From positions 3,630,169 to 3,694,168 of the forward strand of contig CAJINV010000006.1 in assembly GCA_905178155.1 (NCBI GenBank): a DNA stretch of 64,000 nucleotides. Direction: 5' to 3'. Shown one piece after another: positions 16,001 through 63,577 of this stretch. The notes beneath the pieces are model-generated. The model ran no database searches and was not told the origin of the DNA. It saw only the letters and a program-made list of their open reading frames with translations. Positions within the stretch are counted from its first letter, which is position 1. Every line of letters starts with the position of its first letter. The DNA comes from Amoebophrya sp. A120 (taxonomy: Eukaryota > Protista > Dinoflagellata). Both the position numbers and the translations under genes were made by a program.

Positions 16001-16889
16001 ATCCGTCGTCTCCTGTATTGCTAGATCTCCTTCTAGAAGATGATCCTCCTCTTCTTCTCGGGAGATCATCATTACTCGAGACCACGTTGGGCTCGTCGCT
16101 CGATGGTGAACCTGAAGGGCCACGAGATGCAGCTCCTGCACTTCTGCTCCTACTTCTACGTGCTGATGACCCAACACGACTCTGCGGCTCCGAGGATCCA
16201 ACACGACTCTGGCTTGTTCCCCCAGCCTGTACTTGCGTTTGTTCCCTTATTTGTGGTCTTCTCTGTCCCCGCGACCGCCGTTGTTCCCGCCTTTGCTGCC
16301 TCGCTAGAGATCTCTGTCTCTCTTGCTCTTCTCGCATCCACTGTCTTGTTTCGTGCCTCAGCCGCAATCGCTCCTGCGGGTCCGGGCCGTGCATTTCGAA
16401 GACTTTGTCCGCTTCGGCTGTTTTCACCACCAGCATGACCTCCCACATCAGGGTCGCTAGTTCCTGTCTTAAGTGGTTCAATCGCTGTTTATTCATCTTC
16501 TCTTTACCGTCAACATCTCGGCCTTGTGTAGTTTGCTGGGCCGCTGCTGCTCCTGCCAATCTCGCACCCTCAACCGCGTGCTGGATCCGAACTGTGGCCG
16601 CTGGCGCAGTTTCGTTATGACTATCCTGCTCCGGGAGCAGGCGTTGCCATCCCTGGTGCCCACGACTGGGGAATGGCACGGGAAGCCGTTCGCCACTGAT
16701 CAAGTACGAGGAGGCAGGAGGAGCAGCCTGTGTGCCGCAGATGTTGAGGGAGAGTTGTGTGGAAAAAATGATGTAGTTGAAAGTCGTGAGTAGCGCCAGG
16801 GTGGTGGTAGAGTAGTAGTTGCAGCTGCTCCGTCGCGGCCGCTGCCGACTGGGCGGCCCACGAGAGTGATTATTGCGCCGTACCAGCAT
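10020..16889 (-). CDS. Multi-exon Cys-rich protein with N-terminal hydrophobic signal/anchor, unknown function; paralog of 27140-34789
   Basis: ORF pieces join in frame after removing 5 elements (AFL|SDV, YPHV|DER, EIN|RLG, MG|LHF, STP|xNW). The junction near 11330-11490 is unresolved, so this could be two genes. Confidence 0.65.
10625..10960. mobile_element. Introner family C
   Basis: TIR TATGGAAGCGGGTCAGGATCGAAATC; DR GTTGA; in-frame join. Confidence 0.9.
12470..12723. mobile_element. Introner family A
   Basis: TIR core TGCAAA..GTCTGGGTCTGGAA; DR CCACA. Confidence 0.9.
13352..13677. mobile_element. Degenerate introner family A
   Basis: TGCAAATATGTC / GACATATTTGCA; DR lost; frame restored by removing 5 extra nt. 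Confidence 0.65.
14440..14589. mobile_element. Introner family B
   Basis: TIR core TGCAAAAGTATCGYACT; DR AAAGG. Confidence 0.9.
15591..15841. mobile_element. Introner family A
   Basis: TIRs clear; DR diverged (TCGGC/CTGGT). Confidence 0.85.
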
Positions 16890-17911
16890 CTTTTTCTGGC
16901 TTGCTTTTATTTGAATTTATATTTGTGTGACGATCTTCAAGATTGAGCCTCGCAGCGCTGTTCAGTTGTAAATTATCACAAGTTCTTGTGTTTGGTATCT
17001 ACCTTTTACAGGCCGTTGTTTCCTAGAATGGTGGTAGTAAACTTGTGCAGATCTTTGATGTCTTTCAGGTTTTACTTTTTTTGCTACGCTAACTTAAACT
17101 TATGTGAGAATGAAATTGCCGTAAGAAATGCAGAGCCTGGAAATTGCCGAATCAAGGGAAAAATCCTACTTTGGAAAATGCAGTTAGAAGCACTTCTTCA
17201 TGCGTAGTTTTATTGTTTTTGTTTTTGTAATTTGCTCGATGACCATCGCACCATTATCCTCTTAATTTTTTTTTTTTCTTCACGACCTGAATTTCCTCGA
17301 TCACCAACACACTAAAGAGCGAAGATTTTTAGCTGTCTGAACCTGATCCAAATTCATTTATCCGGACGATCATTTGTTTGGTGATCGCAAGCGACAAAAT
17401 CAGAACCAAGAAGACCGAGAGCTTGCTTCAAATTTTCATCGCAAAAATGTGAAACAAGAACCATGAAGATGTTGATGCGCTTTCTCAACACATTTTTTCC
17501 GAATTTACAAGCAGAGCCACGATGAGGACTAATCCCTGGATGCCGATTTATTAAACGCTAGTGTCTATTGGCACCGGGAGTGGTTTGGATCCAGATGAGA
17601 ACTTTGCTGCGCGTCAATACACGTGGTCTATAAAAACATGAGTACACGACACGTCGCACGGTCAGTCACGGGCTGTCTCTTTGTCCTTTTCATGACCCCA
17701 ACCGCATAAACATCTGCAAAAAGCAGGAAGTTGGTCTATTTTCTTCCTCATATCTTCTTCAATCGAACTTCAAGGAGCTCAACAACTTTGCATTTCTTTA
17801 TTCTTTGCTTACATTCCTTCGCTATCGACGTCCTCACGATTGGTTGTATAATAACTTGGTCGAATTACATTCTTGTAATACGCTAAAATTATAATATGAA
17901 GTTACTCTTAA

Positions 17912-20900
17912 TTAAACAACATCCTTGGGGGCGGAGGTGCTACTGTTCTTCTCTTCAATGTGCTGCTTCTCGATTTCGATTTCCTGTGGGTCAGGAAAGA
18001 TCCCACGCTCAATTTCTTCTTCCAGCACCTCAAATTCGATCTTTTTCTTCGTGGCCCGGTCAAAAAAGCTGGCAAAGGATTTCCATTCCTGCCCTTTGGG
18101 AACCTCTCCTTGGGCATAGGGACTGCGGTAGGCGTGCTCTTCGGTCGCGCCATACATGAAATCCCGCCGCACAAGCTTGTGTCTGTTCTCCTTGTGCCAA
18201 CCCTCGGCTCGGCCCCAGGCAATTATGCATTGCAAAAGCATCGCACTCGTTCTCGTAGTAATTGCAGTCACGCATTACAAATCTCGTCTCCCAGGCAAAT
18301 CAGCATGACAAATTCCATTAAGTCTCATGCTGAGCGAATTTGTATTGCAGTTACTTCTAGAAGTACTAGTACTCTTGCAAAGCATAGCGATGGACTGCTG
18401 CCAACTTGCGGAACTGGATTCACCGACGCTGTCAGGTGAGCGACTCGTCCGCGTCTCTCCCGACGGCCCTCGGTGGACGGTCGTCTTTGTGACATCTCGA
18501 AAAAAATTGCGCAGCTCGGCCCTTGCCCCGCGGAACGGCGCGACTGTGTTCATCCCCGACTGTGCGACGTCGTCTTCGACTTTCTTTTATGAATTGCAAA
18601 AATGTCTGGGTCTGGAAAAATGCCAGGTTTGTCATGCATATTGTCCATGACCCAGGATGTCTGTGATGCACGACCTAGCGTCACAGATTTTTAGAGGGGT
18701 TCCTGATGCGTATTCCGCTTAAATGCCCTCTCCGCGTAACACAAAGCGGACTTCTCTTGCGGGTCATGCAAGACAGATTTTTTTAGACTCCAGAGACAGC
18801 ATGACAAGTTGCAACCTTCCAGACCCAGACAAATTTGCACTTGATATCTTTTCCCCGCGGGGACCTCGAGATCCGAACTCTTCCACAATTCTGTCCACCT
18901 CCACCGGGCCGCCGCGGCGCACCGCATTAGAACGTATGCAAGAAAAAAAACTGTGTAAGTGTAAATTTGTGTTGCAGAACAACACGCAGCAGAGTTATAC
19001 CTGTCATGCCAGACAGCCATGAAGCCCTCTTTTCATGTGTGTTTTGCCTTGCAAGCCACGCATGACAGGTTTTCTCTGTCATGCAGAGCAAATTTGTGAT
19101 GCTGTTCCTGAAAGAAAGTTACACTTACACACTTTTTTTTCTGGATAGAACGGGGGCCACCACCACCACCACCACCGCCACGCTTGCTCTCACCCGGGGG
19201 AACAGAAGGGGTAATATCGCGTTCGCCACTGTGCAGATGGAAATCTGCGGGAATGTAAGTCACGGAACTGAAGTCCAGTGCCGCGACATTGTAATATGGA
19301 AGATGCTATGAACTGCAAAAGTATCGTACTCCTATAACATGCATTACAAATTCCCTCAGCATGAGAAATGAAATTTGTAATGCGGATTTACCTTAAGAAT
19401 GAGATTTGTAATGCATGATTGCAATACGAGTACGATACTTTTGCACAGGATAGATGCTCGTGAGGAGCAGCTGCACCACCAGCTTCCTCGCTTGTTCTTG
19501 TGATAACTTGCAGGTTGCCGGCGTGGCTATGGGAGTGTCAGGATCGAAATCGTCAAAGTTGAAATAGTTTGTCATGCATAAAATGCAACGCAGAGATTGC
19601 CTCTATTGCAGAGGACGCAAGGGAGGCAGATTGTAGTGCTGTTAAGGGTCGAGCATTGCCCGGCTGATTAGCATGACAGAGGGGAACCTCTTTTCCCTAA
19701 ACAGCATGACAAAGTGGCTTCCGGCACGGACAAAATTTGTCATGCGCCGACTAGAAACTGTGGGCCAAATTGGTATCGATTTTATGCATTACAAGTTATT
19801 TCAACTTTGACGATTTCAATCCTGACACTTCCATAGTGGCAGCCGGGAAAGTACAAGCCATTGCGATGCATCACGCGAAAGTGCCTCACAGAGTCCTTGT
19901 AGAGCCGTTATCCAAGAAAAAAACATTGTAGGTGTAACTTTTTTGGAGGAACAGCATTACAAATTTGCCTGGCATGACAGCAAAAACCTGTCATGCGCAG
20001 ATAGCACGTGAAAACGCCCTTTAAATAATGGACCCTACGATGCATGCCAAGCATGACAGACGCAATCATCTTGCATGTTGCGCATCACAAATTTACACTA
20101 ACAACGTTTTTTTCTTGCGATAGCCGTTTCATGAGGTCTACTAGCCCTTCGTCTGTGCTGTGCTCGTGCGCAAACTGCCACAACGGCTGGTGGTTGATCT
20201 GCGGAACCGCGGGCGCGAGCTCGAGTCTGCAGGACCATTGTTCATCTGAGACGTGCACAAGCGACGTTCCCAAAAGCGACACCGCTACAGGTGCCAAGTT
20301 CGGCTGGTAGAGGTCTTGGAAAAATTCGGCGTGTGTGTGCTGTGCCTCCGTCGCACGTGGTGCCGTCGCTGGCGTGTCGAGGTGCTCCTGGTTGGTAAGG
20401 GCCCGCGTGACAGCTGCAAATCCGAAGTACGACGTCTTGGCGATGGCGGTGACCTGTGCCGGAAACTCGCTCTCTGATGTTGGATCGCAAGGGCATTTAC
20501 CTTCACAGACCAAGTTGTACCAACAGTCTATGTTGTTGTCTCCGGTCGTGCCGTAAAGACCTTGCTCAAGGCCGATCTTTACGAAGACCGGCTCGCCGTC
20601 GTCTTGCTCCGTCGGGCCGCTCTGCCCTCGGGAGACCCGCTTCATACGTGCGCGTTGATGTGTCCACCCATACTGCTCGCTCGGGGCCGACGCCCCGTTC
20701 ACGTGAAAGCCCGGGCGACCTTCCTTGTTGCGAACCCGAAAGTCTGGCGGCCCGGTGAGCACCACGTGATAGTCCGTTGCGGGCGGGTAAAAGTCACTAG
20801 GTACCCCCGGAAACTCCCGCGGCCCCGCCTGCGCTTGGAAAATGACCTTCAGCTTGTGGTCCGACGGCCAATTCAGCATGTCTTCTGGTGCCTTGTTGCT

Positions 20901-21958
20901 CCTGATCACGGTTGTTCCGGGCGCAGCCGCAGCATCTTCAAAACCCGGGGTGTCCAGCCATGTGTGCGGGCTGCACAGGTCCAACTTCCATCGGTCCTGG
21001 CAGTCGTGAACGCACGAAGACGAAGTAGTTGCATCGTACTGCCCGGTATCCTGTGCAAAAGTATCGTACTAGTAGAAATCGCAATACAAAAAATTGGCTT
21101 AGCATTTCAAATGGAATTTGTAATGCTGATTTGCCTTAACAACTAGATTTGTAATGCCAATGCGTAACTGCAATTAGGACGAGTACGATACTTTTGCAAT
21201 GCATACCCGGTACCCGGCATCCCCTGAGCACCGACGTACTGTGCGAGCAGGCCCGCCTGGTCTTCCCGCGCCTTGATTGTAACAGTTTTCGTTGACGTCT
21301 CGTCGGAAGATTTTTGTAGTTCTACTTCTTGTCGCGCGTAGCTGATTTTCTTGTTTCTCTTCGTGGAAGTCCTGGTCCTCTCGGACACGGCGAGGAAGGA
21401 GGTCGTGAAGGGGTCGTGCACAAGGGAATGAGAAGTGGAAGTACTTCTAGAAGACCTGGTTGCCATTCTTGCCATCCTGCTCCGCGTATTATTCATCTTC
21501 GTCAAATTAAGAAAATCGTAGTCACCGCCTCCGAAGTCACTCGCGAGATGAGCATCTTCTTCATTTTTCATCCGGAAGGCAAATAAGTCATGAGAGGTTG
21601 GAAACATAATTTCATCACCTCCTCCTCCGTGCAACAAGGACAACTTCTCGCCACACCATGACCACACGACCCCGGCCAACATTTTTGTCCCTAACAACGA
21701 GCCACCGGCGCCAAGGACTTCATCTAGGTAAAACCAGAGGACCCACACGGCGAGGAGTAGAGTTAGAAACGACACTACGAGGCGGGCCCGTCTTGTGGAT
21801 CCTTCCACTGGTGCAGCAGCTTCTGCAACTCCGGGTACAGCCTTCAAGAGAAACATATAGTTGGTCTTCTTGGTATTATAATCAGGCGAAGGTGCTGCAG
21901 GACCTCCGACTTGCACTCGGTCCTCCTCGCGAAATTCTTTTATTCTTGGGGAATTCAT
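17912..21958 (-). CDS. 8-exon single-TM protein with degenerate protein-kinase-like motifs
   Basis: All 7 junctions are in frame from ATG 21958 to TAA 17912. TM segment LVVSFLTLLLAVWVLWFYL. Motifs VFVKIG, MHRNGLYFPGCHAGN, AALDFS. Confidence 0.75.
18224..18386. mobile_element. Introner family B
   Basis: DR GCAAT/GCGAT. Confidence 0.85.
18588..18846. mobile_element. Introner family A
   Basis: DR TCTTT. Confidence 0.92.
18935..19147. mobile_element. Introner family D
   Basis: TIR TATSCAAGAAAAAAA..TGTAAGTGTAA; DR GAACG. Confidence 0.92.
19307..19452. mobile_element. Introner family B
   Basis: DR GATGC. Confidence 0.92.
19528..19835. mobile_element. Introner family C
   Basis: DR GTGGC. Confidence 0.92.
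19909..20122. mobile_element. Introner family D
   Basis: DR GCCGT. Confidence 0.92.
21047..21205. mobile_element. Introner family B
   Basis: DR CCCGG. Confidence 0.92.
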
Positions 21959-21999
21959 CGCTACGGCTACTCTTGCTTGTGAGATCCTTATACAACTTA

Positions 22000-22826
22000 C
22001 TTAGCAGTTATAACTTGGAGGGGAACAAGTCGTTGTTTTTCTCGGGGATCATGGGACGATAAAGGGGTTTTTCATACATAGGTTGATGCCACCTGCCGAG
22101 ACGTTTACGATTTCACATGTGAGCAAGCTGGCGAGACGCAGGTCAAGAAACAAGAACCGAAACCGATGAAGATGTTGAACGCATTAATCACTAACAATGC
22201 GAGTAAAACAGCACCAACAACTACTTCACCATCACCGCCTCACGAAACCGACAACAGAGGTACTATTATTGAAAAGTAAAATGCCAAAAAGAAGTTTGAA
22301 TAGAGCACAACTGTACGGTTTGAATATACCACTCACGTGAACCGACACAAACATCTGAAGGTGATGAAGAAAGAATACCGAGAGGAGCATGACGACCACG
22401 AGAGGTTCTAGCACGATCAAATGCATGAACCAACACGTTAACTCAACCGAATTATAAATCTATTTTCACACACGAAACGGAAGACGTCGAACGGACCGAA
22501 TTGTGAACCTTCACACACATCACGATAGCGTGGTCCCCTGAAGACGTCGAAAGGACCGAACTGTGAACCTTCATGCACTTGATGAGGACCGAAGTAACTC
22601 TACCATTTTGTACTTGTTGTAGTGGCTCGCTGTAATTATACAAAAACTCGTTTTGTAATGGAGGACGCACGACGCTCATGCGGCGCGTCTTCACGGAAGA
22701 CCAAGGAAATCTGAACAGATAAGTACTTACTTCTTACACAAAGTGCGGCGACGGACTCTGTAGTTGTTTCTGCAGCGGCTATGTCTGACTGTCACACGAT
22801 TCGCATCAACACGACATCGATCTTGA
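22000..22826. repeat. Duplicated non-coding upstream block, copy 1
   Basis: Colinear with 24088-24868 (CTTAGCAGTTATAACTTGGAGGGGAA ... TCGCATCAACACGAC). Confidence 0.9.
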
Positions 22827-23429
22827 ACATACTCTTCTCTCCTGAGCAACGAGCTTCAGCTTTCCGTCACACGAAATCCGCTATAATGCATGCGGTCGAT
22901 GCGCAGCCACCAGTAGCAGGCGCGCCCTGTTGTAGAAATCATCGGGCGAGGACTCACAGAAGTCGCGTAGCGTACCTACGAACATTGGCTCATCGCAAGC
23001 GTCCACCGATAAAAACACTCACTACAGGACTTTAGCTACAAACCGCCGTAGAGTTGACACCACCAGCAGGGGCGTCCTGGTGAGAGGATTGCGCATTCGC
23101 CTCTCTAGTTAGGGTTAGTCTACTGATGAATTTACTCTGTTCGACATTATCGCCTTAGAATTCCCTTTTTCGACCCCTCAGTATCATGATCGCCTGGACT
23201 GGGAGACTTTCAACATTGCTGATGAAGGAAGATCTATCTATCTATCGCGCGAGGAGACTTTTAGAACTTTAGGTGGTGCGCCCCGCCCTTCGCAGCTCGC
23301 ACTTCTGATGGTGAGACGCGCGGGTTACGCAGCCTATGTTGCTGTTTCGCAGGCCAGAAATTACAATATAATGTAAAAAGACAGAAGGAGAGGGTAAAAA
23401 AATAAAAGGAAAGAAAAGGATCTAAAACG

Positions 23430-24032
23430 CTAATTGTTCATTTTCTTGTCTTTGCTTGCTTTCCTCGATGTAGAAGAAGTAGAGGCTGTTTGTCTTGCTG
23501 TGCCGTACCCGTAGCTGGCCTCGGTTACTATTTGTCGCGCGACTTGCATCAATAGCTTATGGTCAGGCTTAACCGGAATTTTCGTGTCCGGGGGTTTTAC
23601 ATCCTTATACGTGGTTGTACAAGCTAGGCCCAACACACTGCTCCAGCTCTCCAAGCAAGTCGTCGTTGTATCTCCCTCCTTCCTTTCGCGCAACTCACAG
23701 CGCGCCGGCTCTCCTCCCTTTTGTCCCGGAATGCACTTACACGGCCCCGCTGAAAGGATTCCCGGAGCCCAACACTTGTGGGGAGCGAAGGCGTCCGCCG
23801 GGGGCTGCTTCTGTGTAAACGCGCTCGCCGTCTTGTCGGCTTCGTTGTCACCCATCGGAGTGGAGCCGTCAGCGGATTGAGACCCGCGCCAGCTGCCGGC
23901 CTTGGCGTCCCCGTTCGCCAGGGTGTCCACCTCCGTGGTGCCCGCCACGCTGGACGGGTTAATCGCCTTCACCAAGGCGATCGGCCCCCCCCCCGCCACA
24001 AACAAGCTGGCCTTCTTCATCATCTGCGTCAT
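23430..24032 (-). CDS. Hypothetical 200-aa protein with a small Cys cluster
   Basis: ATG-TAA ORF with codon-like composition, same orientation as neighbours, and an upstream block shared with the previous gene. Confidence 0.55.
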   Translation of the reverse strand: MTQMMKKASLFVAGGGPIALVKAINPSSVAGTTEVDTLANGDAKAGSWRGSQSADGSTPMGDNEADKTASAFTQKQPPADAFAPHKCWAPGILSAGPCKCIPGQKGGEPARCELRERKEGDTTTTCLESWSSVLGLACTTTYKDVKPPDTKIPVKPDHKLLMQVARQIVTEASYGYGTARQTASTSSTSRKASKDKKMNN

Positions 24033-24087
24033 TTTGGAACGCGAAGGACAATAGGAGCTTGGTACTTACACAAGAAAGCGGCTACTT

Positions 24088-24868
24088 CTTAGCAGTTATA
24101 ACTTGGAGGGGAAGTTGTTGCTTTTCTCGGGGGGAAGTTGTTGCTTTTCTCGGGGATTTGGCACGAAAAGGTTTTTCATACATAGGTTTGCCTCCCGAGG
24201 CATTTAAGATCTCACATGTGTTCATCAAAAAACAAGAACCAAAACCGATGAATGCATCAAAAATGCAGCGAGTAAAACACCAAAAACAACTTCACCGCCG
24301 CACGAAACCGACAGCAGAGGTCGTACTATATTGAAAAGTAAATAAATCCCAAAGTGAAGTTTGCATATAGCACTGCACAGTTTGAGTATACCACTCTCAC
24401 TCACATGAACCGACACAAGAACCATCTGAAGGTGAAAGAATACCGAGAGGAGCACCACCACGTCGAGAGGTTCTTTCAGCATCAAATGCATGAACCAACA
24501 CGTTATTCTTATTATTAACTCGACCGAATTATAAATCTATCTTTACACACGATACGGAGTAGCGTGGTCCCCTGAGGACGTCGAAAGGACCGAATTGTGA
24601 ACCTTCATGCAATTTAATAAGTTTTTGATGAGGACCGACGAGAATAACTCTACCATGCTGTACTTGTAGCGGCTGTAATTCTACAAAAACTCGTCGTGTA
24701 ATGGAGGACGCAAGAAGCTCACGCGGCGCGTCTCCACAGGAAGCCACGGAATTATGAACAGATAAGTACTTACACAAAGTCAAAGTGCGGCGACTGACTT
24801 GGCAGTTGTTTCTGCAGCTGCTACGTCTGACTGTCGCACGACTCGCATCAACACGACGTCGATCTTGG
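24088..24868. repeat. Duplicated non-coding upstream block, copy 2
   Basis: Colinear with 22000-22826, with substitutions and indels. Confidence 0.9.
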
Positions 24869-25006
24869 ATGTGAATAGCTGCAAATAAAAATCAAGCAAG
24901 TGCAAGACAATAAGCAATTCGCTTTTCTTGATCATTCCAAGTTGATGCTACGTCACTCCTTCTTCTTGTTCACCTTCATGCCAGTGTTGGCAAAAGAACT
25001 AATTAT

Positions 25007-25127
25007 GCTAGCTGCATGTCAGATTGTCAGGAACGCCCTGATCTCAGTAAAAAAATGATTCGAACGTATTGCTAGCATGTCAGATTGTCAGGAGCGCCCT
25101 GATCTCAGTAAAAAATGATTTGAACGT
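25007..25127. repeat. Two-copy ~60-bp tandem repeat
   Basis: GCATGTCAGATTGTCAGGARCGCCCTGATCTCAGTAAAAAA twice. Confidence 0.85.
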
Positions 25128-26133
25128 CTATAGGTCGTAACTGCTTTTGATGTCCTCGTTGCATTAACAAACACGATGATGTTGATTTTTTTGGTTTTGT
25201 CCATATTCTGGTGTTGTCCATATTTTGGTCTTGTCCAGATTTTGTTGTTCTTGTTCAGGTCGTTAACATGAAATAATGACGCGGTATATGTTGCGTAGTT
25301 CATCCTTGAGGTCCTACAGGAGCGCTTTGTTCTTCTCAAGAAGGAACCACGTCCAGGTGGTCCAAAACGAAAAACAAAACTTCCGAAAAACAATAGACAA
25401 GCTGCTGACAATCTCCTAAAAATGCTTGTTTGACACCTGGGTGGTCATGTTGACAAAAAAGACCGTACATCTTCAATAGCGCCTCGTTGCGCTTGATTCG
25501 TATACGTATCTCATTTTCTCCTTGTCCTTCCGCTTTCAAAGTATAATGCTTTGATAATCAAACACATTCGTGCTCCTGCGCTCTACGTCTACAATTGGTG
25601 TTTTTAGTTTTACGTTCACTATGATAAATAAAAACGAGTTGATATTTGTGATTTTCTTCAAAAGACAACTTTAAAAAAGAGTTTTTTCGGCCGTGCCGGA
25701 ATAAAGCCACATATTGATATTCCTAAAAACGACCGACCCCAGCGCTCGCCAGCACGATGCTCGGTTTATTCCGAAGCATCCGTCAGGTTGTACGGTCGAC
25801 AAGCACCTGCAGCTCCCGCAAGTGGGGCCGGCCGTCTAGCTGCATGGCAAAGTGCAGCACTCGTATGAGTATCGGTTCTCCATGAAGCAGGTTCGGTCGC
25901 GTTGCAAGAGCATTCAAATTGGTAAGTCCTATTGGCCACACAATTACGGACGGCACGCCGTGGTCGCCGTCGCCACAACTACAAGCGTAGGGGCTTATCA
26001 TAGTACAACCCTCGACGCACCAGTAGCCGTTCTTACTTAAGGTTAACTACAACATTTCTGCCCCTACTCCCTGCACCATCCCGGCTAATTCTTCCATCAG
26101 CTGGTACTCTCTTTGCGACAGACGTCCCCCATC

Positions 26134-26456
26134 TATCAGAAGGAAAAATCCCCCCACCCCATATCGAAGTGGAAATCTGTGACGCGGGACTTGTGTACAC
26201 AAATCGGCTCTGTATTGCAGGAAGGCAACGCGGCTAGATCCCCAGGCTATGCAGGGGCGTATCGGGCTAGTTGCTCAGCATGGCAAACGGCCCCGCTTTA
26301 GGCCCAACAGCATGACCAATCACCTCCATAATGGGGGCGAAGCTTTTGCCCTTGTCTTCTAGCAAGACAGACGTGATTTGTGACCTCAAATCAGCAACAC
26401 AAATTTTCGGAAACATGCCTTTTCGATATGGAGAGGGGGGATTTTTCCTCTCAATA
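26134..26456. mobile_element. TIR element (family F, ends resemble G) between two ~82-bp direct repeats
   Basis: TATCAGAAGGAAAAATCCCCCC..CCATATCGAA / TTCGATATGG..GGGGGGATTTTTCCTCTCAATA. Confidence 0.75.
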
Positions 26457-27139
26457 TTTACATTTCTGCCCCCACTCCCTGCACCATCCCGGCTAATTCT
26501 TCCATCAGCTGGTGCTCTCTTTGCGACAGACGTCCCCCATCTGCCCCAAATTCTGTCCACCGCCTGGTGCGATCATAAAACCTTAACCACTCCCAGATCA
26601 GGCTGCGAAAGTGAGAGCGGTCCGGAGCAACCGGCGGAAGACGGCGTCCGTGGGGCGCACCGGGATCCACCTCCCCGTTAGCAATGTCCATTTCCGATGG
26701 CGGTAATATGCACGACAAAAACATGGAAGATCTTCTGCCGGGAAGAGGAGGTCCTCTGAGTTTGTCTTTCGATAGTTGACGCGAGGTTACAACATGATAC
26801 AACATGGACGACCAGCATGCGGGCACATCATAGAAGACATGATGGGCGGCTCCTGCGTTAACAATGTCACATGCAGCAAAAAAGCTGCGGGGGCGTCAAG
26901 ACAGCTCGTCTTTCTCATGCAATTATACACAGCGCGCAGAAGTGTTGTAGCCTTAGAGAGGACAAGCCTGCAATGCACGGCTCATGTCGTTCTCGTTGTA
27001 TTCGTAAGTACAAGAGGCCGAAACTTTGTCAGGACGCTTTATACAAAAAGAAGTAGACACAGCAATAGTACATCAACAGTACAACCGAAAATTATGATTT
27101 ATTTTCATCTCGTGCTGCTCTCTTCAATATCTTTGTCTT

Positions 27140-30100
27140 TCAGAGAACCCCCCAGGACGAGCTGCGGCCACATTTCTTCAAACGCATAAGCAGTATCAAG
27201 TGTAAAAGTGTCTGGGTCTGGAAGAATGCAACTTGTGATGCTGCATTTGGATTCCAAAAAAATCTGTATTGCATGAGTACCGAAGGAAATGCAGTTTTTG
27301 CTAGGCTGAGAAGGCATTTGTCATGCGGAATACGCATCAAGAAGCCCTCAAAAAATCTGTATTGCTAGGGTATGCATCACAGACATCATGGCTCATGCAA
27401 AACGTGCATGACAAGTGTCAGCATCTTCCAGACCCAGACACTTTTACAGTTGATAAGCAGAACGCTCCTGCCAATTTCGCCATTCCGCGCCTGGTATCGC
27501 TGAAGATCTTGCAGAGTTGGGTACAACAGCCATTGCAACGCAGCGTATGCTGGTTTCGATGATGAGCGCGGATCGGCATCGGTGGTTGAAGTACTTGGTC
27601 CTGAAGACGAAGAAGAAGGTCGTGATGGAGCGACGAGATGTTCTTGACCACCACGCGGCGCAGAATGACGAGCAGCTCCTTCGCCATCGCCGCTGGGCAG
27701 TGGTGCAACTTGATGCTGAGCTGCACTATCAAAACTCTCCATCACCTTCCGCAAAACGTCCCGCATGCGTTGCTGCCTCACCCCAATTTTCGAAATCAGC
27801 CGGGGCCCGAGGACGTCGATAAACAGGCCGTGCGCGCAACAGTCTTTCAACATACAGACCCCACACCGGGTTACACAACCTGCGGGGTCACACAAGGTGC
27901 CAAGGCCACCGTGCAGTACAGCGCAGGGAACCAAATAGCAGCTGCAATTTCGCCGGGACAGAAAAGTCTGAAACAGGCAGGTGTTTGCCAGGTCGGTGGT
28001 ACAGGCGTGGAGATCATTTTTGGAACAGCAGCCACCGTTAATATTTCGCAGACAATTCTTCTTCGGTAGTTGACCATTCGTATTTTCGACCGGGGTTCCA
28101 CTTTTCGGCTTTTCTTTTTCCAAAGATTCTTGCTCCGATTTATTTTTCCCAGCACTTCTAGCTGCGCAATACTTTCCACAGCTCGCCGCCTCTACACACC
28201 CCGGAACTGAGTCGCCGATAAAGCGCGAGAAAACCGCTCGCGCGGCCAGCTGGTACAGGATGATTGCCTATGAATGTGCACAACTCCCCCTCCGCCTCAT
28301 TTGTCATGCAAAATGCCCAATCCAGGCCGTGCCTCTTAGCACTGTTCGCACGACAAGTTCTGGCAGCCCGAATAGCACTACAATCCTGTGCAAGAAATCT
28401 CGCATGCAAAACCTGCATTCTGGCAGGCACTTGTATTGCCGTTCATGCTACACAAGTAAGGGGGAGGGGGACGAGTTGTGCACTGTCATATTGCCTTCAG
28501 CTCGTCCAGAAACGCGGTAAGGACAGGGGCCAGAACGATAATTTCCTCCTTTGTGAGATGAAGCTGCCGATCTTCACGATCTTGCCCTCCACCTTCGTGC
28601 CGAGTTTGCTCTCCAGCTCCATCAGGAGCAGGAGCTGCTGTTGCTGCAGCTCCCACCCCGCCTTGCACTTGTTCCCGCAGTCCGTCGCCCCGAGCAGAGT
28701 CTCCTTGTTGCGGTCTTTCGTCTCGTCCAGGTCGAGGTCGTCGCCTTTCACCAACATCATCCCCAACCCGATACCGCCAGCGATTTAATCCCTGCAACAC
28801 CTGGGCACTGTAGTTTGCGTTCTCGTCTGGGCGAAAGCACAAATGCGTCGGGCTGCATAACCTCCCCTCGCCCTCCGAATGACCATACAGCAGCTCACTC
28901 TGCGTGCCCCCGCAACACGGGGGGCTGAACACCGTCAAGAAACAGCAGTTATGCACCGGGTTTAAGCAACAGTGGCGGGCTACCGACTCGGCAGTTTCGT
29001 AGGTCTCCGGGACGCAGGCCGTTGGGGTTCCATCCAGGCCGGATGTGCGGCTGCGCGCCGGCGGCGTGCAGCCACATATTGTCGGTTCCATTTTGTAGTT
29101 CCAGACCCCCGCCAACCCTCCCCCATTCCGTTTTGACAAACAGAGCATTTCGCAGCAGGTAGTATGCTCCTCAAAAGCCTTGAAGGAGTTTGGTTCTCTC
29201 CGCTGCACTTCTTCGAACTGCTCTCGTCGCGCAGTCTCTTCTTTGGTTTGGAATTTTCGCTTGTGTAGAGAAAACCTTTGGGGGCCGTTAATCGGCCCTA
29301 CTTTTCGAATCGCTTGGACTGAGAAAAGACCACCGACGTATGCAATGCAAAAGTATCGTAGTAGTAGTAATTGCAATAGATACAAGTTAGCTGAGCATGA
29401 CAAATGGAATTTGTCATGGTCTTTTGCCTTGGGATGATAATGCAAGACTTGCATTTATACGAATACGATACTTTTGCACAGGATAAAACAGTGTTCTCCA
29501 CGATCCTTCCGCCGAACGGGTTGTCATCGAAAGTTTTTTGTCTCTGTGTGTCAAACCGAAGCATGCGACGCGCGTGTTTCTTTGCCGTTGCCATCATGCT
29601 GTCAGAAGTACCACTCGAGGAGAGAAGGTGGGACGTCGAGAACTCCTGGCGATGTTCCTGATCTCCTGCTTCGCTCATGGAAATCATCTCGACGTCGTCC
29701 GAAGGTCGCAGCTGCGAAGCTTCTGTTCTTGCAGTGGTATGACGTGCACCAGCAACTACCCGCTGTGTACTAGAGCCACCTGCTCTACTGGTCGTCTCCA
29801 TTCTGTGCTGCTGCGGAGCTGGTTCTCTCACTTGGGCAGTTGCAGCAGCTCGCGCGGTAGTAGAAGTACTGCGACGACGAAACGACGCACCAATTGGAAA
29901 AGTGTCGTCTTGCATTCCATCTTGCGAAGATCTCCGATCTACCGGAGCTCGTCGTTGCCTAGTAGAAGGACCTGCTGCCGCGGCCGGGGGTGCGGCTTTT
30001 GGTGTAGAAAGAGAAAGTGCAGACAAATCCGAGGATAAGGCATCAGCTTCTGCTCCCCCTCCTCCGTGGGCCGCTTCATGAATCAGCAGCACTTCATCAT

Positions 30101-33100
30101 CTTGGTGCGGAGAAGTAGTAGCTTGCCTGCGTCCTCTTCGCGCGGCTCCCCCCGAGCTCCTGCGGCGAGATGACCCGCGCGAAGATGTTCTTCTGGGCTG
30201 CAGTTGTTCATCTTCTGGTCCCCCCAGCCGCATCAAGCGGTCGGCTTCTCCGGTGGGGTTTTCTATGTCGTCTTCAAGCAGGAACGGGCCTCGCGTTCCG
30301 AATTTCTTCTCCTTAGCTCGGCGAGACCGCGAGGAAGACGAGGATCTTATGAAAGTGCACAACTCCCCCTCCCCCTCATTTGTGATGCAAAGTGCCTAAC
30401 TTACGCCTTGCCTCTGGGCACTGTTAGCATGACAAGTTCTGGCAGCCCAAATAGCACTACACTCCTGTCAAAATTTGTCTTGCAAAACCTGTATTCTTGC
30501 TGACGCTTGTATTGCTGTTCATGCAATACAAATGAGGGGGAGGGGGAGTTGTGCATTCTCATAGATCTGCTGCGGGGCCGCGAGGATGAGGAAGAGGAGG
30601 ATCTGCTCCTACTTCTGCTCGAAGAGGTAGAAGTTCTTGATGATTTAGAGCCTGGTGAGGTGGCCATTGTAGGACCTCCAGTGCTGGACACCATCGCAGG
30701 AGTACTAGAGGCTCCTTGTTCTGAAACGCCGCCGCCGTCGCCACGACCGAAGGGGCACCAAGAAGAGGCACTAAATAAGAGCTCCTTCAGCATCTTCTTC
30801 AGATCACTCACTCTCTCGCTTTCAATCACGGCCGTTGCCAGCTCCTTCTGTATATCAAATGCAAACATGTCTGGGTCTGGAAGAATGCAAGATTTGTAAT
30901 GCTGAACTCGCATACTCCCAAACTCTGTAATGCGTGTTGCGGAATAGCGGCGCAGGTGCTTCTGTGTCATGCAAAAACGCAGTTTCTCATGCGTGTTTAC
31001 ACATCACAGGACCGTTAAAAAATCTGTCATGCTCCTCGGCTGCACACTCTAGTAATTTTTTCATTCGTGTATTAGCATGACAAGTTTCCAGAACCAGACA
31101 TATTTGCATTTGATACTGTAATTTCGGACAGTCGAGGAAGCCGGAACCGTTGACAGATGATACAAAAGCGGCGGCATTTTGACTTTGACCACTCGGTGGC
31201 CGCTGCTGCCCAGCACGACTTGTTGCTTTAGCTTTTTCCTCGTCCCCTACGTCTAGGAGCTGCTGCTTCATCCACTCGACTTTCAAAAGCATCCGCAGAA
31301 ACAACCGCTGCTGTTCCGCGGAGGTGAGCTCCTTCACAGCACGCGCGGCAGGCAGGTCCTCGCGCGCCGGCGCAGCTCCTGGAAGATGATGCCGTAGTTC
31401 TTGCATCTCGTGCTGTTCTGGCACATCTTGTTTCTCAACATCTACCCCGGTTTTTACAACGGTTCTTCTCCCCCCGCCCGGCATAAAAGTAATCTCTTCC
31501 AAAAACCCCACCGTCCCCGCCAACACCTGTAACACCCCTTGGTAGGCATCGCCCCCCGCTATCGGGTCGGTCTTGTGCGGCCACGGGCAGTATCAAGTGC
31601 AAAAATGTCTGGGTCTGGAAGATTACTAGCAGGCTTCTCATGCATATTTCGCATAACCCATGATGCCCGTAATGCATGACCTAGCATCACAGATTTTCAA
31701 AGGGACTTCCGATGCGTATTCCGCATGAGAAACGCCCGCTCCGCGTAGCACAAACTGAACTCCTCTTGCTGGTCATGCAATACAGATTTTTTTTTCTTTC
31801 CAAAGACAGCATCACAAGGTGCAACCTTCCAGACCCAGACGTTTTTGCATTTGATAGGCAGAAATACTCGAAATCGCTTGCCGCACACATCCCGCACCCG
31901 GTGCATGGACTTCCACCAACTGCTGTGCGGATATGGATGTGTCAGGATCGAAATCGACAAAGTCGAAAAATTTGTGATGCATAAAATCGATACCAGTTGG
32001 AAGCCCAATTTCTAAGCGGTGCATGACAAATTTCGGCATCGCCTAAATCCAGTTTGTCATGCTGCTTAGGGAAAGAGGGCGCCTTTTGTCATGCTACTTT
32101 AGCATCTCTATCGCAGAGGACCCCAAACAGGCTGACAGTCGGCCTCGCTTGCCGTCCCTGCAAGCGAGGCACTTCATGCCTTGCAGTTTATGCATGGCAA
32201 ACTATTTCAACTTTGACGATTTCAATCCTGACACTTTCCATAGCTGGCACAGCCCAGATACGGCCGGTCGGGGTCCTCGTCCTTCATTTTGCGCAGATAA
32301 TTCCGGTACTCGTCGCTCTTTTTATCAAGTGCGAATATGTCCTCTGGGTCTGGAAGAGTGTAGTAAACTTGTCATGCAGGTTTTTCCATGACGATGACCC
32401 ATGAGGTCTGGAATTATGCGGGACCTAGCATGACAGAGTCTACTGTGAGGTCTCTGCCATCATGCCTATCCTGCATGAGAAACTCAGTCCAAACTTGGTC
32501 GAAAGTGGCGACGAGCTTTTGGCACCCATACAACACAGATTTCTGCATGATTCGGATTTAGCATAACAAGTTTCATCAATCTTCCAGACCCAAACATTTT
32601 TGCGAATCCATACTTTTTCGCCTTTTCCAAGTCAAATTGCGCGTCGTTGAGGAGGGGTAACTCTATCGCAAGAAAAAACTGCTTCACTGTGAACTTGTGA
32701 TGCAGAAAATGCATCACTGAAGTGCTTGTCTTGCTACATGATATCCAAGACAAGTTATTTTTAGCGGTGTTTTCCCTTAGGATCCTTGCATGGCAAGTCT
32801 TCTTTGTAATGTGTAGCGAACTTGTAATGCAAAACTTGCAAAGTCCTTAAAGTGAAACAGTTTTTTCTATACGATAAACTCATCTCGATCTTTATAGGCC
32901 GAATAGATTTCGTGGGCGGTCCGAAGCTCCTTTCTCTGCTTTCTGAGGTATCTAACCTCATTGTAGCTCAGCCTCCTGTGTTCATCTTCCCCGTCATCCG
33001 GCGGAGGCGGGGTGTTGCTAATTCTCTCACGTTCGTGAAACGTGAATCTGGGGTCTGTAGTCTCCTGAGTAAAAACGTCCCCACACCAGAGTCAGGATGG

Positions 33101-34789
33101 GGATTTTGCACCACAAAACTAGGAGTTTTGTGAGTCACGCATGAAAAGCTGCATTCCGCAGTGTAGTGCAGGTTAGCAAGTGCAGCCGCGTCACAGATTC
33201 ATCTGCTCATCCTGTTCACAGCATCAAAAATTCCAAACCACGATTGGAAATGGCTCTCATGGGGATGCGCATTACAAGTCTTCCTGTCTTTGCAAATCTG
33301 CATTACAACTCTGGTGTGGGGACGTTTTTCCTCAAAATATGTAGTTTCCCGAATCTGGGTGGGTGTCTGGAACGGGTGCCGGCGGTAGATGGTCGCTTGT
33401 TCTGGTCCGTTCCGGGCGTCCGCCCGATCATGGCTCCCGGGAGGACGGCGTCTCGCCCGGAGCTCCTCAGTCACCCTGTCCACCTCATACTTGTCGTGGA
33501 ACCGTCGCGCTATCCTGTGCAAAAGTATCGTAGACTCGTATTGCAGTCATGCATTACAAATTTTTTCCCTAAGGTGAATCCGCATTAGAAGTTTTTATTT
33601 TTCATCATGCTGAGGAAATTTGTAATGCATTTTTTTTACGAGTGCGATAATATTGCGGTTCATACGCGCGGCCAAGTTAAAACCCTCAGCGTACTTTTCT
33701 TTGATTTCCTTCTGCTCCCGCGGCAGCCGGACTTTCAAGCTGTGCTATCCTGTGCAAAAGTATCGCACTCGTAGTAATTGCAGTCATGCAAGACAAATTT
33801 CTTTTTCAAGCTAAATCAGCATGACAAACTCCATTTCTCATGCTGAGCTAATTTGTATTGCAATACTACGATTACGATACTTTTGCACAGGATATGTGCA
33901 GAGGATTCACAATGTCCGGGTCAATGGGCGGGCGAAGGGCTTGAAACTCTTCAGTCTCAGCTAGGACACTCGGCGGCCGGACTTTCCAGGCTTATGGAAG
34001 CGTCAGGTTTGAAATCGACAAAGTTGAAATGATTCGCCATGCATAAAATGCAAGGCATGAAGTGCCTGTCTTGCCGGGCTGGCAAGCGAGGCCGACTCTC
34101 AGCCTGTTTAGGGTTTGGAGTAGAGCTGCTAAAGTAGCATGACAAAAGCAGTCGTCTCTGCCCAAACAGCATGACAAATTGGATTCCGGTGCTCGGAAAA
34201 TTTGTCATGCACCGCTTGAAAATTGGGCTTCCAAGGGTATCGATTTTATGCATTGCAAGTTATTTCAACTTTGACGATTTCAATCCTGACGCTTCCATAA
34301 GGCTTCCATCGCCTGTATCTGAAAAAGGAGCTCGAGAAGGAGGGTCGCCGTTTCTCGACGATTTTTTTCTGTCAAATGCTGTTCCTGCTCGGACGATGCT
34401 GAATCTGCTGCGCCTCCGCTTCCTGCTGAACGACGAATCGTTCTGGTACTCGTACTACCAGTCGGGGGCGACTCTACTTGCCCTTGCACAACAGATGATG
34501 AAGGGCAAGGGTCAGCGGCTAGTAGCGGTTCCACCTGCGAATGATGAAATTCATCTCCACGGCGAGTGGACGACGACCTCGCTGAGTTTGATGAATTGCG
34601 CGGCGATAAAAGGCTAAGTCCACCTCCTTCGGACAGTGGTGTTGCGCCAGCTCCTGCTGCATTGCTTGTTGCGCTTATCAACACGAAGACGAGGCTTGTT
34701 GTAATGGCGAACACGTCAAACACACGAAGCAGTAGAAACCTCATGTCGACGCGTCCGCGTGGCAAAGTTAAAGTTTGCATTTTCTCCAA
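27140..34789 (-). CDS. 14-exon Cys-rich signal-peptide protein, unknown function; paralog of 10020-16889
   Basis: 13 elements removed, each join in frame (e.g. MEA|WKV, LH|SLK, ETT|DPR, KLQ|KEL, LKA|IIL). N-terminal FAITTSLVFVLISATSNA. Confidence 0.8.
27194..27455. mobile_element. Introner family A
   Basis: DR AGCAG. Confidence 0.92.
28269..28490. mobile_element. Introner family E
   Basis: TIR TATGA..GTGCACAACTCCCCCTCC; DR TTGCC. Confidence 0.92.
29339..29485. mobile_element. Introner family B
   Basis: TIRs clear; DR diverged (CGACG/AAACA). Confidence 0.85.
30348..30563. mobile_element. Introner family E
   Basis: DR GATCT. Confidence 0.92.
30853..31115. mobile_element. Introner family A
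   Basis: DR CTGTA. Confidence 0.92.
31591..31856. mobile_element. Introner family A
   Basis: DR GGCAG. Confidence 0.92.
31932..32242. mobile_element. Introner family C
   Basis: DR diverged (GCGGA/GCTGG). Confidence 0.88.
32323..32612. mobile_element. Introner family A (divergent)
   Basis: DR CTTTT. Confidence 0.85.
32664..32876. mobile_element. Introner family D
   Basis: DR AACTC. Confidence 0.88.
33061..33339. mobile_element. Introner family G
   Basis: IR AAAAACGTCCCCACACCAGAGT; DR TGTAG; in-frame join. Confidence 0.85.
33511..33664. mobile_element. Introner family B
   Basis: DR CGCGC. Confidence 0.9.
33746..33894. mobile_element. Introner family B
   Basis: DR TGTGC. Confidence 0.92.
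33993..34299. mobile_element. Introner family C
   Basis: DR AGGCT. Confidence 0.92.
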
Positions 34790-36186
34790 ACTACCGGTCG
34801 TTTCGAAGCTCGGACTTCGCTTCCTCTTGACGGCGCACAGGAGCTTCGTTCGATTGGTCTAGTACTCAAGTCTTAGTGATGTTGCCGAAAGTTAAATTTT
34901 TCACGACTAGCACACCAGAACTACATACGCAAGCGAAAATAATGATAGTAAAATTAGGTCGTAAAATATTTTTTTCGGGTTGAGTCTACACGTAGAAATG
35001 CACTTCGCAATCAATAAAAAAAGTGTATATTTGTACACAGAAGGGAAATTGTTAGCAATACCGTTAAGAATCCACGACGAGGAGCGCACGAATTGACTCT
35101 AAGGGCAAGAATCTAGGACGCACACAACCACCGTGGTGGATTTTCTTCAGCGAGTAAGTACCAAAATACCTGACAGCCTGAAACAGGGTGGGTTTACATC
35201 GTGACCGATCAGGTTCAGTGGGTGAAAGAATGTGCACCGAGCTAGTGTGGTAGTGTCATATGATCGTGGGATTTCAGATCATGGGACTTTTTACCAGCCA
35301 TTTGCATCATAGGGCCGCGGATTTGGAGCGATCCTCATTTCTTTGTAATTCTGATTTCATTCTCACCTGCAGAAATAAACAATAACAATTTCAAATACTG
35401 TAAACTCCTGAATTGAATCAGTAAGAAACGATCACGATGAGATCATTTCTTGAGCTGGCACAGGACCTCTTTTGCCACAGGTTACAGCACATCCAGTCCA
35501 CAAGGAAAAAGATGAAAATCACATGAGACAAGCGGTTAGTTCGTTGTTACTGTGTCTTTATCCTAGAAGGTGGACATCACTAGTGCTCTTTTCACAACTT
35601 CCCTCCAGGAGGTGAAGATGGGGCTTGAAGTCACGACATCTTGTTAGTGTTTTATTTCCTTTCGGGTGCTCATCTTGCGATTCATTTACTAGTACTAGAA
35701 CTACTTCACATGATTCTACTTTGTTCACATAAAATTCAAACCCTCCTATGGCACAGTTGCGGTCTTAGTTTTTTCATTTTGAACTGGCTATTGTTGTGGT
35801 CATCTGAAGGCTTTTCCTCGGAAAGCAGCCTTATTCTTGGTACTAGAAGTTCAATCAATATACACGGATGTTGAGAGCAACCCAGCTGCTACGAGGTTAT
35901 GGCTTTGACATTGAACCGCAAAAAAAATGGGCATTGAGGCGAGAGATGAGAGTGATGGGCTGTATAATCGTTTGAGCGTGAGCGTCGAGGTCGAGCCATG
36001 TACAACTTACATAGATGAAATTGAAAACAACTTTATCTGCAATATTACTGAGGTAAGCGTAAGACTCACCATGCCCACAAGAACTGAATCTTGTCGCAGG
36101 GGCTCTTGATTCTACACACGTTTGCTCATGCCTTCTCCACGAGTCACAGTTCGCCGTAAAGAAACTTTTCAGCCCTGAAGTTTTGT

Positions 36187-55600: not shown

Positions 55601-56897
55601 ATTCCGCCGATGGAACAAGTTCCAAACAGTACTACACTCGGCGTATGAATTTGTCATGCAGCACCGGGTCCACCTGTACTGGTTTATTCTTTTTGTCATG
55701 CTCTTCATGCAATACAACATATCAGGGGGAGCGGGAGCAGTTCTTGTGCACTCTCATACCAGACTTCGTCACAGGGCCACTGGGCCTCCAGCAACACAGC
55801 AGCGTCCAGAACCGCGACAACTATGCATTGCAAAACTACTCGTACAAATCGTATTTATGCATCACAAATTTCTTTGTCAAGTTAAACCCGCACTACAAAT
55901 TCCATTTTTAATGCTGAGAAAATTTGTAATGCAATTTATACTAGTACGATTATAGTACTTTTGCATTGCATAACAATGCGATTGCTGCAAAACTGGAGTG
56001 CGGTTTTCCAGTTGCGTTTATTCTTCTTGGTGTTCGCCGATGTTGCAGACGGCTGATTGCTTTCATCATCGACTGTTATTTCCGGCGCAGCGTCCTGTTG
56101 CCCTCCTTTGTTAACGGCAACAGTTACATTCCTCGCAAGCGCTTCCGCTTTTCCCAGCGCTGCTTCTGCGACCTGCATATTATCTTTGTTTATCGTGTGC
56201 AAAAGTATCGCACTCGTATAAATGCATTACAAATTTCCTCAGCATGAGAAAAAAAATTTGTAATGCGGATCGACCATAAGAAAAGGATTTGTAATGCATG
56301 ATTGCAATACGAGTACGATACTTTTGCACAGGATATTGTTGCTCTTCGACCGACTCCGTTGCTTGCTGGTGCCACGTATCAAGTGCAAATATGTCTGGCT
56401 CTGGAAGATGATTGCGAGATTTGTCATGCTTGTCTAGCATGACCAAAAAGTTTGTGACGCGTGTCAAAGAAGAGACCCTTTTGCCTGTCATGCAAAAACG
56501 CAGTTTGTCATGCGAAACACGCAACACAAAGAAGCGCAGATATTTTTCATGCTTGGCTGTGCAACATTACAGAGCGTTCACTATTCCCAACGCAGCATTA
56601 CAAGTTTCCAGACCCAGACACTTTTGCATTTGATACCACGGTTGCGGTCAGTAACCAGGGAATTCCGTTGGGAAGCGGATTTTTCTTCTTGCAGCTGCCT
56701 GTAGGCACACTCAAACTCTTCGACCTGTGGTGAAGTTTTTGAATTTTATCAAGGTCTGTCATGCAGAGCCGGCATTAATATCAAAAAATGCGGTTGGAGG
56801 TTGAGGTTGTGATGCAAACATAGCTACTTGATGTACTACTCTCTATGCAGAACATCAAAGCTTTTTCCATCCGTACCTCCTCTGCGATCTGCAGACA
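52685..56897 (-). CDS. Dephospho-CoA kinase (CoaE/COASY-type) domain protein with long low-complexity C-terminus; 5' part lies beyond the window
   Basis: Joined exons read VLDAAVLLEAQWPCDEVWSVFCNREVQVERIMARDHITQEQAENRLGAQISNKKRVAVSDVVL, the typical C-terminal half of DPCK. Confidence 0.85.
53564..53876. mobile_element. Introner family C
   Basis: DR AGAGA. Confidence 0.92.
53921..54228. mobile_element. Introner family C
   Basis: DR TCGTG. Confidence 0.92.
55221..55433. mobile_element. Introner family D
   Basis: DR ATGTG; join ARDH|ITQE. Confidence 0.92.
55495..55758. mobile_element. Introner family E
   Basis: DR CCAGA; join DEVW|SVF. Confidence 0.9.
55822..55972. mobile_element. Introner family B
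   Basis: DR ACAAC/ACAAT. Confidence 0.88.
56191..56335. mobile_element. Introner family B
   Basis: DR TTGTT. Confidence 0.92.
56377..56635. mobile_element. Introner family A
   Basis: DR CCACG. Confidence 0.92.
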
Positions 56898-57040: not shown

Positions 57041-57399
57041 TGTGAAGTTTCCTGTAAATGTGGCGAACAACAAATTTGGAAACTTTCATAGAGGTTACGA
57101 TCCTCAAGCGTATTGGGGTGTTACCAATTGTGAATTCCAGTATTGCGCGTATATTGGGTTCACAAACAAGCCTGACATCGTTCCATTCAAAAATCCACAT
57201 CGGTCTTCTTTTCATCTGTATCGTTTCTCATCGTCATTGCATTCAGATTAGCACGCTATGCTAGAAGCTAGTATAGTGTGTACGATACTACAACGATAGG
57301 TGTACGATGGTCCGAATAAATATGCTCTGAACGAATACCGATAGTAGTAATGATTTTTGCATTCAGACAGAAACTGGGTGTACGTCAATACCGATGACA
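57041..57399 (-). repeat. 3' LTR
   Basis: Direct repeat of 63578-63936; two mismatches seen by eye. Confidence 0.97.
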
Positions 57400-57413
57400 T
57401 TCCCCCGTCTCCA
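57400..57413 (-). promoter_or_regulatory. Polypurine tract
   Basis: GGAGACGGGGGAA immediately before the 3' LTR on the minus strand. Confidence 0.8.
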
Positions 57414-63212: not shown

Positions 63213-63567
63213 TTTTGGGGTTGTTAAGATGGAAAATTTGTAATGTTAAGTAAGGGATTTTTACTTAGAATTAAGGTGATGCGATATAAGAACTTGTAAT
63301 GCGAAACACGAGCTAACTACTTAAAAATAGGCATGTTTTTCAAAAAAGTTGTATGTGGAAAATTATATGATTTACATGGAGATTAGAAGTATACTATACT
63401 TGATTTATGCGTTTTTACTTGTGTTATTTTGAATTTGTGATGCTGCTTCTGTATAAAACTGTTGAGTTATGTATTTTGTTTTTTATGCTATGTAAAAAAC
63501 TGTAACTATTTATTTTTCGAATTTGTCATGCTACTATAAAAATTTTAAAGTGAAGAAAGAAATAAAA

Positions 63568-63577
63568 TCCGCTACCA
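63568..63577 (-). promoter_or_regulatory. Primer-binding site, probably initiator tRNA-Met
   Basis: TGGTAGCGGA directly after the 5' LTR, complementary to a tRNA 3' end ...GCTACCA. Confidence 0.75.

Follow-up and report, generated by a model that had tools for sequence, protein, structure and literature searches.

Introner elements of Amoebophrya sp. A120 lack GT-AG ends and are very probably removed from RNA, in either orientation and probably at a fixed register

We have studied the insertions that interrupt minus-strand genes in a stretch of 64,000 nucleotides (nt) from Amoebophrya sp. A120 (contig CAJINV010000006.1, positions 3,630,169 to 3,694,168). This whole stretch is called the window, and all coordinates refer to it. 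The insertions begin with TAT and end with ATA, and we confirm the observation of an earlier note, made from the sequence, that they lie both ways round and lack GT-AG ends. They are the transposon-derived introner elements already published for this strain, for which a hairpin model was also put forward (Farhat et al., 2021; PMC7789003). Their removal at the level of RNA, defined by the two ends of the element, is well supported. What is new relative to the available text of that paper is that removal occurs in both directions, that the target-site duplication (TSD) is dispensable and that the cut probably has a fixed −1/+4 register, deduced from seven junctions.

A scan for TAT...ATA pairs, supplemented by BLAST for missed copies, gave 51 elements, making up 19% of the window. 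A 52nd at 11314-11529 was overlooked by the scan and found through the protein P0039; it is left out of all statistics on the 51. A 53rd is cut off at the end of the window. Most elements are about 145-336 nt in length, with one of 1024 nt, and they fall into seven repeated families. Perfect direct repeats of 5 nt flank 40 of the 51 (mean 0.94 and maximum 7 in 20,000 shuffles), while repeats of 4 or 6 nt flank none of them. The 5′ end is TAT in 50 of the 51, and A is found at element positions 11, 12 and 13 in 37, 43 and 42 elements respectively, the A run being missing from families C, E and G. The A120 introner elements are described as non-canonical introns of about 240 nt with 29,850 members, having terminal inverted repeats (TIRs) of TAT + 7 nt + AAA and direct repeats of 3-5 nt (PMC7789003). 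The window elements have the same boundary repeats and the same TIR of TAT, 7 nt and at least three A, come from the same organism by protein identity, and do not differ in kind from that description. A Pfam scan of 28 open reading frames (ORFs) recognized no transposase, and 27 of them gave no match; no search was aimed at a cognate autonomous transposase.

The two ends of the elements have changed little. In the window the terminal triplets differ at 4 of 306 bases, compared with 21 of 250 for TSD pairs, and in 109 copies of family A the corresponding values, summed by hand, are 10/327 and 33/545, a less clear contrast. The ends thus seem to be under constraint after insertion. Altered triplets occur at 14440, 33061 and 38186, all inside ORFs, with sense 3′ ends of ATG, AGA and AAA respectively, together with a 5′ TAC at 14440. 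Three of the four changes are therefore at the 3′ end, and removal still restores the frame.

The orientation of elements within families was determined from internal alignments, with 35 nt trimmed off each element end. The family A elements at 18588-18846 (TSD TCTTT/TCTTT) and 31591-31856 (TSD GGCAG) are reversed relative to that at 27194-27455 (TSD AGCAG), with reverse scores of 200 and 192.5 and forward scores of 25 and 19.5. The family C element at 19528-19835 (TSD GTGGC) is likewise reversed relative to that at 31932-32242 (decayed TSD GCGGA/GCTGG), scoring 218 against 18. All five lie in minus-strand genes, where ORFs emerge only after removal. The arrangement described in the earlier note is upheld. 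Both directions are found within family A (8/4), B (6/9), C (4/2), D (4/3) and E (4/1), with 48 of the 51 elements called. Removal is seen in both orientations for family A (18588 and 27194), family B (18224 compared with 19307, 21047 and 29339) and family D (18935 and 19909), while in family C transcript support is confined to 19528. No GT/GC...AG register is available to any of the five elements, nor to the repeats GTTGA, GATGC or TTGTT. The stronger statement that removal cannot be GT-AG holds for these named elements but fails for two of the 51, 28269 having a GC-AG and 44493 a GT-AG register. Two of 51 on the sense strand, against five of 50 in the antisense control, is the level expected by chance, and as a class the elements do not have the GT/GC...AG ends of U2-type introns.

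A second assembly gave the same result. The family-A terminal motif was used to retrieve 129 loci from a collection of metagenomes (48.8% GC; the 80 loci listed belong to JACKZZ01). These carry the same element families as the window, with copies up to 94.7% identical, and none of the 129 is orthologous to the window. They contain 334 unique elements, of which 218 could not be oriented by ORF; 11 of the 116 that could be oriented had no family, leaving 105. The orientation bias that had been proposed as evidence against a hairpin route is not seen in these, with 56 elements one way and 49 the other, and canonical registers are found in 5/105 on the sense strand and 5/105 on the antisense strand.

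Removal of each element together with 5 nt generates minus-strand ORFs of 1524, 1478, 863, 790 and 783 amino acids (aa). Offsets of +2 and +8 preserve the frame as well; with any other offset no ORF exceeds 476 aa, and without splicing the region yields 396 aa. At 45777, 46167 and 46712 the alignment with homologs, among them a protein of A25, is free of gaps, so that an offset of +5 is favored over +2 or +8. In 33 of the 51 cases the length removed is not a multiple of 3, and the ORFs exist only after removal. The protein P0001, named as Amoebophrya sp. A120, corresponds to residues 816-1524 of the spliced 1524-aa ORF with 709/709 identities across three elements, including that at 27194. P0003, named for the same organism, is identical at 748/748 residues over a part with nine elements and at 169/169 over a part with another three. 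One of these three is the 1024-nt element at 43431-44454, the whole of which is omitted from the protein. These identities place the elements within Amoebophrya A120 genes.

We then asked whether the elements are lost from DNA or from RNA, a matter that the earlier note had left open. Four sequencing runs were compared over 14200-34199, a region containing 23 elements. The kind of run is not on record; X1 is read as genomic DNA from its even depth (about 44-51 in element-free bins), while X3 and X6 are presumed to be RNA from their uneven depth, which is zero in three bins covered by X1. The raw RNA reads of X9 gave two matches to the region, too few to count as evidence. In the eight X1 pieces listed, contigs at a depth of 40-47 extend 22-58 nt into elements at all 12 of the ends crossed; none of these boundaries thus shows a branch toward an empty site. 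In the pieces listed, the transcript-like contigs of X3 and X6 lack at least 12 of these 23 elements, and precisely one repeat remains in each case. Record 9 of X3 joins 21041 directly to 21206, and the 570 nt between its other pieces equals the removal of six elements plus 5 nt each; 18588 and 19528 are missing from it by this length arithmetic (570 = 570 nt). Record 18 of X6 skips four elements, and record 17 stops at the predicted joint of 27194, at 27185, with 34 nt left over. Altogether 13 of 13 piece ends coincide with predicted joints, at eight elements. Removal is thus seen in transcript-like contigs for 18588, 19528 and 27194, and is indicated by ORF restoration only for 31591 and 31932. 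As a class the elements share with the A120 introner elements the lack of GT-AG ends, and these 12 also the absence from transcripts, the contigs being presumed RNA. We conclude with great confidence that the elements are cut out of RNA and not DNA; the X1, X3 and X6 contigs strongly favor RNA, and together with ORF restoration they support a non-GT-AG removal that is independent of orientation.

Where is the cut made? We let k stand for how many bases are removed ahead of TAT, read on the sense strand, with 5−k removed after ATA. With a perfect repeat the junction can slide, whereas a decayed repeat constrains the register. Two constraints come from contig junctions. The family B element at 29339-29485 has a decayed TSD, and its joint 29334|29487, which cannot slide, takes one base ahead of TAT and four beyond ATA when read on the sense strand (k = 1); that at 18224-18386, with one TSD mismatch, permits registers 0-2 (k ≤ 2). 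From protein models, the limits are k ≤ 1 for 13352 and k ≥ 1 for 15591 (P0039 and P0038, unnamed, 100% identical to window exons); with P0003 they are k ≤ 3 for 48607 and k ≤ 2 for 48890, and an exhaustive search at element 11314, which returned two solutions, gives k ≤ 1. The sole register common to all seven decayed-repeat junctions is k = 1; were registers random, all six looser limits would include it with a probability that we calculate as 0.015. Decayed repeats are also found at 31932, 36721, 55822 and 26134, which are not among the seven junctions, and element 46712, being synonymous, adds no register information. At k = 1 the intron becomes N-T-A-T-(G/C)...A-T-A-N-N-N-N, with all four bases seen at +1 and at −1. 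We consider it likely that the cut keeps a constant distance of 1 nt before TAT and of 4 nt after ATA, and every intron would then have the form N-U-A-U...A-U-A-N-N-N-N. In Table S4 of PMC7789003 the predominant non-canonical splice sites of A120 fall into nine types, every one of which begins with N-T, in agreement with k = 1. As removal is exact at decayed repeats, an intact TSD is not needed for it.

Other origins of the joints may be considered. In developmental DNA excision the elements would behave like the internal eliminated sequences (IESs) of ciliates, and TA at both ends and the TIR plus direct-repeat anatomy are in keeping with this. The TA-IESs of Paramecium are short and numerous, have TA at their ends, interrupt ORFs and are cut from somatic DNA to leave one TA. 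Contigs lose rare variants, stage-specific DNA is outside the sample, and there are 1043 joints beyond those listed. Yet in the one DNA-like run the elements are not absent, since the X1 contigs enter them at every end crossed in the pieces listed, and the element-free contigs have zero depth in three bins covered by X1, unlike DNA. Moreover, the footprint is not that of Paramecium: both TA are removed, and it is a variable 5-mer that stays. We know of no germline-soma nuclear split in Amoebophrya, so that DNA excision would be permanent. We regard it as very unlikely. A hairpin with a direct repeat is the usual recipe for template switching by reverse transcriptase, which could create false introns. 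The exact removal at 29339 despite mismatches at 3/5 positions of the repeat argues against this, as do ORFs that exist only after removals of which 33/51 are not multiples of 3; decayed repeats also argue against microhomology repair. We give template switching almost no credence. Finally, removal from RNA might use a cut that slides within the duplication and differs among elements. The legend to Figure 3 of PMC7789003 has variable splice sites and calls the element border unknown, and a single junction, 29339, sets the register unaided. Set against this, the seven junctions share one register, and elements with two or three TSD mismatches still lose precisely the element plus 5 nt. A sliding cut is in our view improbable.

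The contribution of pairing between the ends was examined by several comparisons. A terminal stem is predicted for 42 of 50 elements on the sense strand and for 42 of 50 on the antisense strand, as expected of any TIR, and there is no preference in folding, the sense strand being lower in 30 of 50. In groups A, C, D, E and F2 the left and right arms of the same element match each other better than arms that have been shuffled, which is not so for A2, B, F and G; the result is equally explained by subfamily structure. Asymmetry between donor and acceptor arms reaches p < 0.05 at 2/50 positions in the window; in the pooled data it does so at flank positions −7, −6, −4 and −2 and at arm position 15, and the flank asymmetry looks like the A-over-T bias of the coding strand. 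The hairpin splicing suggested in the earlier note stands as a non-standard removal at the level of RNA, while its proposal that the stem brings the ends together is a suggestion to which the G-U wobble test lends no support. Its use of branch-point lariats to refute a hairpin route went too far, since lariat formation is compatible with an intron that is defined by a hairpin.

Our best explanation for the whole, which we hold with a modest degree of preference, is that TAT...ATA inverted-repeat insertions with a 5-nt TSD are taken out of pre-mRNA, along with the equivalent of one copy of the duplication, by a machinery derived from the spliceosome that lacks U1, reads only the two ends and would cut at a fixed offset from them. 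The inverted repeat has the same ends whichever strand is read, and for this reason orientation would make no difference; nor would the length of the interior or the identity of the TSD. N-UAU(G/C) could be a donor in which +1 is relaxed, recognition by U1 and of AG might be replaced by the terminal stem, and the 3′ cut may be measured from the end of the stem, with an A at −7 or −5 as the possible branch from which this is done. At k = 1 the +2 U and +3 A are donor-like. U1 is reported as undetected in A25 and A120 although 35-40% of introns are GT-AG, and nearly all spliceosomal proteins are retained in both (PMC7789003), while U1 is present in a strain whose introns are canonical (PMC12005148). 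Spliceosomal introns of Giardia have [G|C]TATGT with a fused branch/3′ motif (PMC10711314). We lean slightly toward the spliceosome as the catalyst.

A number of observations weigh against such a reading. The first and last bases of the intron are unconstrained, and a stem of 20-30 bp would hide the donor as well as any branch A, an awkward arrangement if a spliceosome is at work. There is no excess of G-U over A-C on the sense strand, the ratio being 50:36 in the window (p 0.16), 65:95 in the loci of the second assembly (p 0.02, in the opposite direction) and 115:131 when pooled. In the 109 family-A copies the terminal triplet is no better preserved than the inner repeat. Concerning the register, 29339 is alone in pinning it by itself, and five of the seven limits come from protein models that possibly rest on the same transcripts, the A120 gene models having been built from transcript alignments (PMC7789003, section 25). 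P0038 shifts frame upstream of 15591, and P0039 is short of 3 residues away from elements. The Table S4 types depend on the aligner, and eight of the nine also end A-N, the mirror register (PMC7789003). X3 and X6 are presumed rather than recorded to be RNA, and contigs reveal neither molecules nor lariats nor strand.

The main rival to a spliceosomal catalyst is a structure-specific endonuclease with an RNA ligase, which would use the same ends, cut the base of the stem with a 3-nt 3′ stagger and release a linear or circular intron. Such enzymes would tolerate any base at both ends of the intron, as is found, and would make use of the terminal stem predicted in 42/50 elements on either strand. 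This route is suspected for the nonconventional introns of Euglena, where CAG pairs with CTG with spacers of 3 and 5 nt and circular release is reported (PMC12501133). However, no enzyme has been identified, the U and A at +2 and +3 (k = 1) resemble spliceosomal donors, and there is no wobble signature. In addition, nearly all spliceosomal proteins are kept, and the spliceosome appears to function without detectable U1 in the account of PMC7789003. We judge this route unlikely, though less so than a sliding cut. Returning to an end-reading spliceosome, we offer tentatively, as somewhat short of an even chance, a symmetric "ruler" splicing code in which paired TAT...ATA ends would be cut at −1/+4 whatever the orientation, interior, length and flanks, by a spliceosome working without U1, G+1 and AG recognition.

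Comparable introns are known in other lineages. The Euglena nonconventional introns (PMC12501133) also lack GT-AG and have a paired trinucleotide at the base of the stem, asymmetric spacers and slidable direct repeats; they differ in CAG/CTG, in 3/5-nt spacers and in a purine preference at the first exon base, and belong to an unrelated lineage. In the window elements the trinucleotides are TAT/ATA and the spacers 1/4 nt, and there is no clear preference for a purine. Counted by position with k = 1, these elements do not show the euglenid CAG at +4 and CTG at −8, while stem-paired ends with asymmetric spacers are shared (predicted stem in 42/50; the 1/4 spacers inferred). Introner-like elements of Polarella and Aureococcus have TIRs and TSDs, with some classes forming introns in either orientation (bioRxiv 2020.10.14.339549; PMC9860276), but take G(T/C/A)-AG sites from the element or TSD, which the window elements offer only at chance level. 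Diplonemid introns (PMC12621601) derive from MITEs (miniature transposable elements with inverted repeats), are non-GT-AG and have pairing ends, but these are G/C-rich; those of Fritillaria (via PMC11282704) are MITE-derived and non-GT-AG, with AG-AN ends. Orientation of the elements is not discussed in the available text of PMC7789003, where the passages on "orientation" are about the order of genes; the word "excision" is absent from the main text. No later literature on the splicing mechanism in Amoebophrya was found in a search that left out most subscription journals.

The remaining elements and their hosts can be described briefly. The 863-aa ORF (stop to stop) at 17915-22000, on the minus strand, is that of X3 record 9, with seven elements removed. 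Minus-strand elements in this region include 18935-19147 (family D, reversed relative to 19909-20122 of the same family), 19307-19452 (family B, TSD GATGC, to which 18224 is reversed) and 21047-21205 (family B), whose joint 21041|21206 is directly observed. The 1524-aa ORF (27143-34858, minus strand) has 13 elements removed, among them those at 32323, 32664, 33061, 33511, 33746 and 33993; minus-strand elements at 28269-28490 (the family E element with the GC-AG register), 30348-30563 (family E) and 30853-31115 (a second subfamily of A) also lie there. P0001 starts in the middle of this ORF, although X6 record 18 extends 5′ to 31489; its annotation has probably been cut short or divided. Downstream of the same ORF, in non-coding DNA, the family F element 26134-26456, to which no strand is assigned, has in place of a 5-nt TSD a direct duplication of about 80 nt at its flanks, the whole spanning 26058-26540.

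Further minus-strand hosts are the ORFs at 10023-16916 (elements 10625, 11314-11529, 12470, 13352, 14440 and 15591), ORF segments of 255 and 204 aa at 36190-38996 (elements 36721, 37009, 37600, 37942, 38186 and 38465) and the 790-aa ORF at 52688-56745, with seven elements removed (53564, 53921, 55221, 55495, 55822, 56191 and 56377). The minus-strand host gene of P0003 (43121-49502) has 12 elements and a GT-AG intron at 45170-45363, with homologs in A25 and other protists and distant matches that include Orn/DAP/Arg decarboxylase-fused proteins. Its 1024-nt element (43431-44454) is a family B element with a perfect TSD GGTCC and a nested insert of about 870 nt, which has its own inverted ends and GGCGCACCGAGGC repeats. 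A second case of nesting is a Copia-like long terminal repeat (LTR) retroelement at 57041-63936, inside a family A element starting at 56898 whose two halves are 76.7% identical to 27194 over 196 nt. The retroelement has LTRs of 359 nt that are 99.4% identical, TG...CA ends, a TSD ATAGG and weak rve and RVT_2 matches below the Pfam cut-offs. Such nesting could be the origin of the A120 family described as Copia ORFs flanked by TIRs (PMC12130899). GC-rich stretches (63-70%) at 7001-9000 and 40001-41600 have overlapping ORFs in several frames.

The question of the splicing route concerns about 60% of the introns of Amoebophrya A25 and A120. A fixed register would replace the absence of a splice signal by a defined consensus, open to tests across the genome, and would show where a branch point or circle junction should be sought. 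It should also improve gene models, such as that of P0001 beginning in the middle of a 1524-aa ORF. The introns of A25 are reported to have TT starts and TTA repeats (PMC7789003); if these place TA at +2/+3 and −6/−5, a single rule N-TA...TA-NNNN would span both strains. The ruler code, if true, would represent a geometric convergence with the NNN-CAG...CTG-NNNNN of Euglena. A fixed register would explain how a class of TIR transposons can be harmless inside exons, in either direction.

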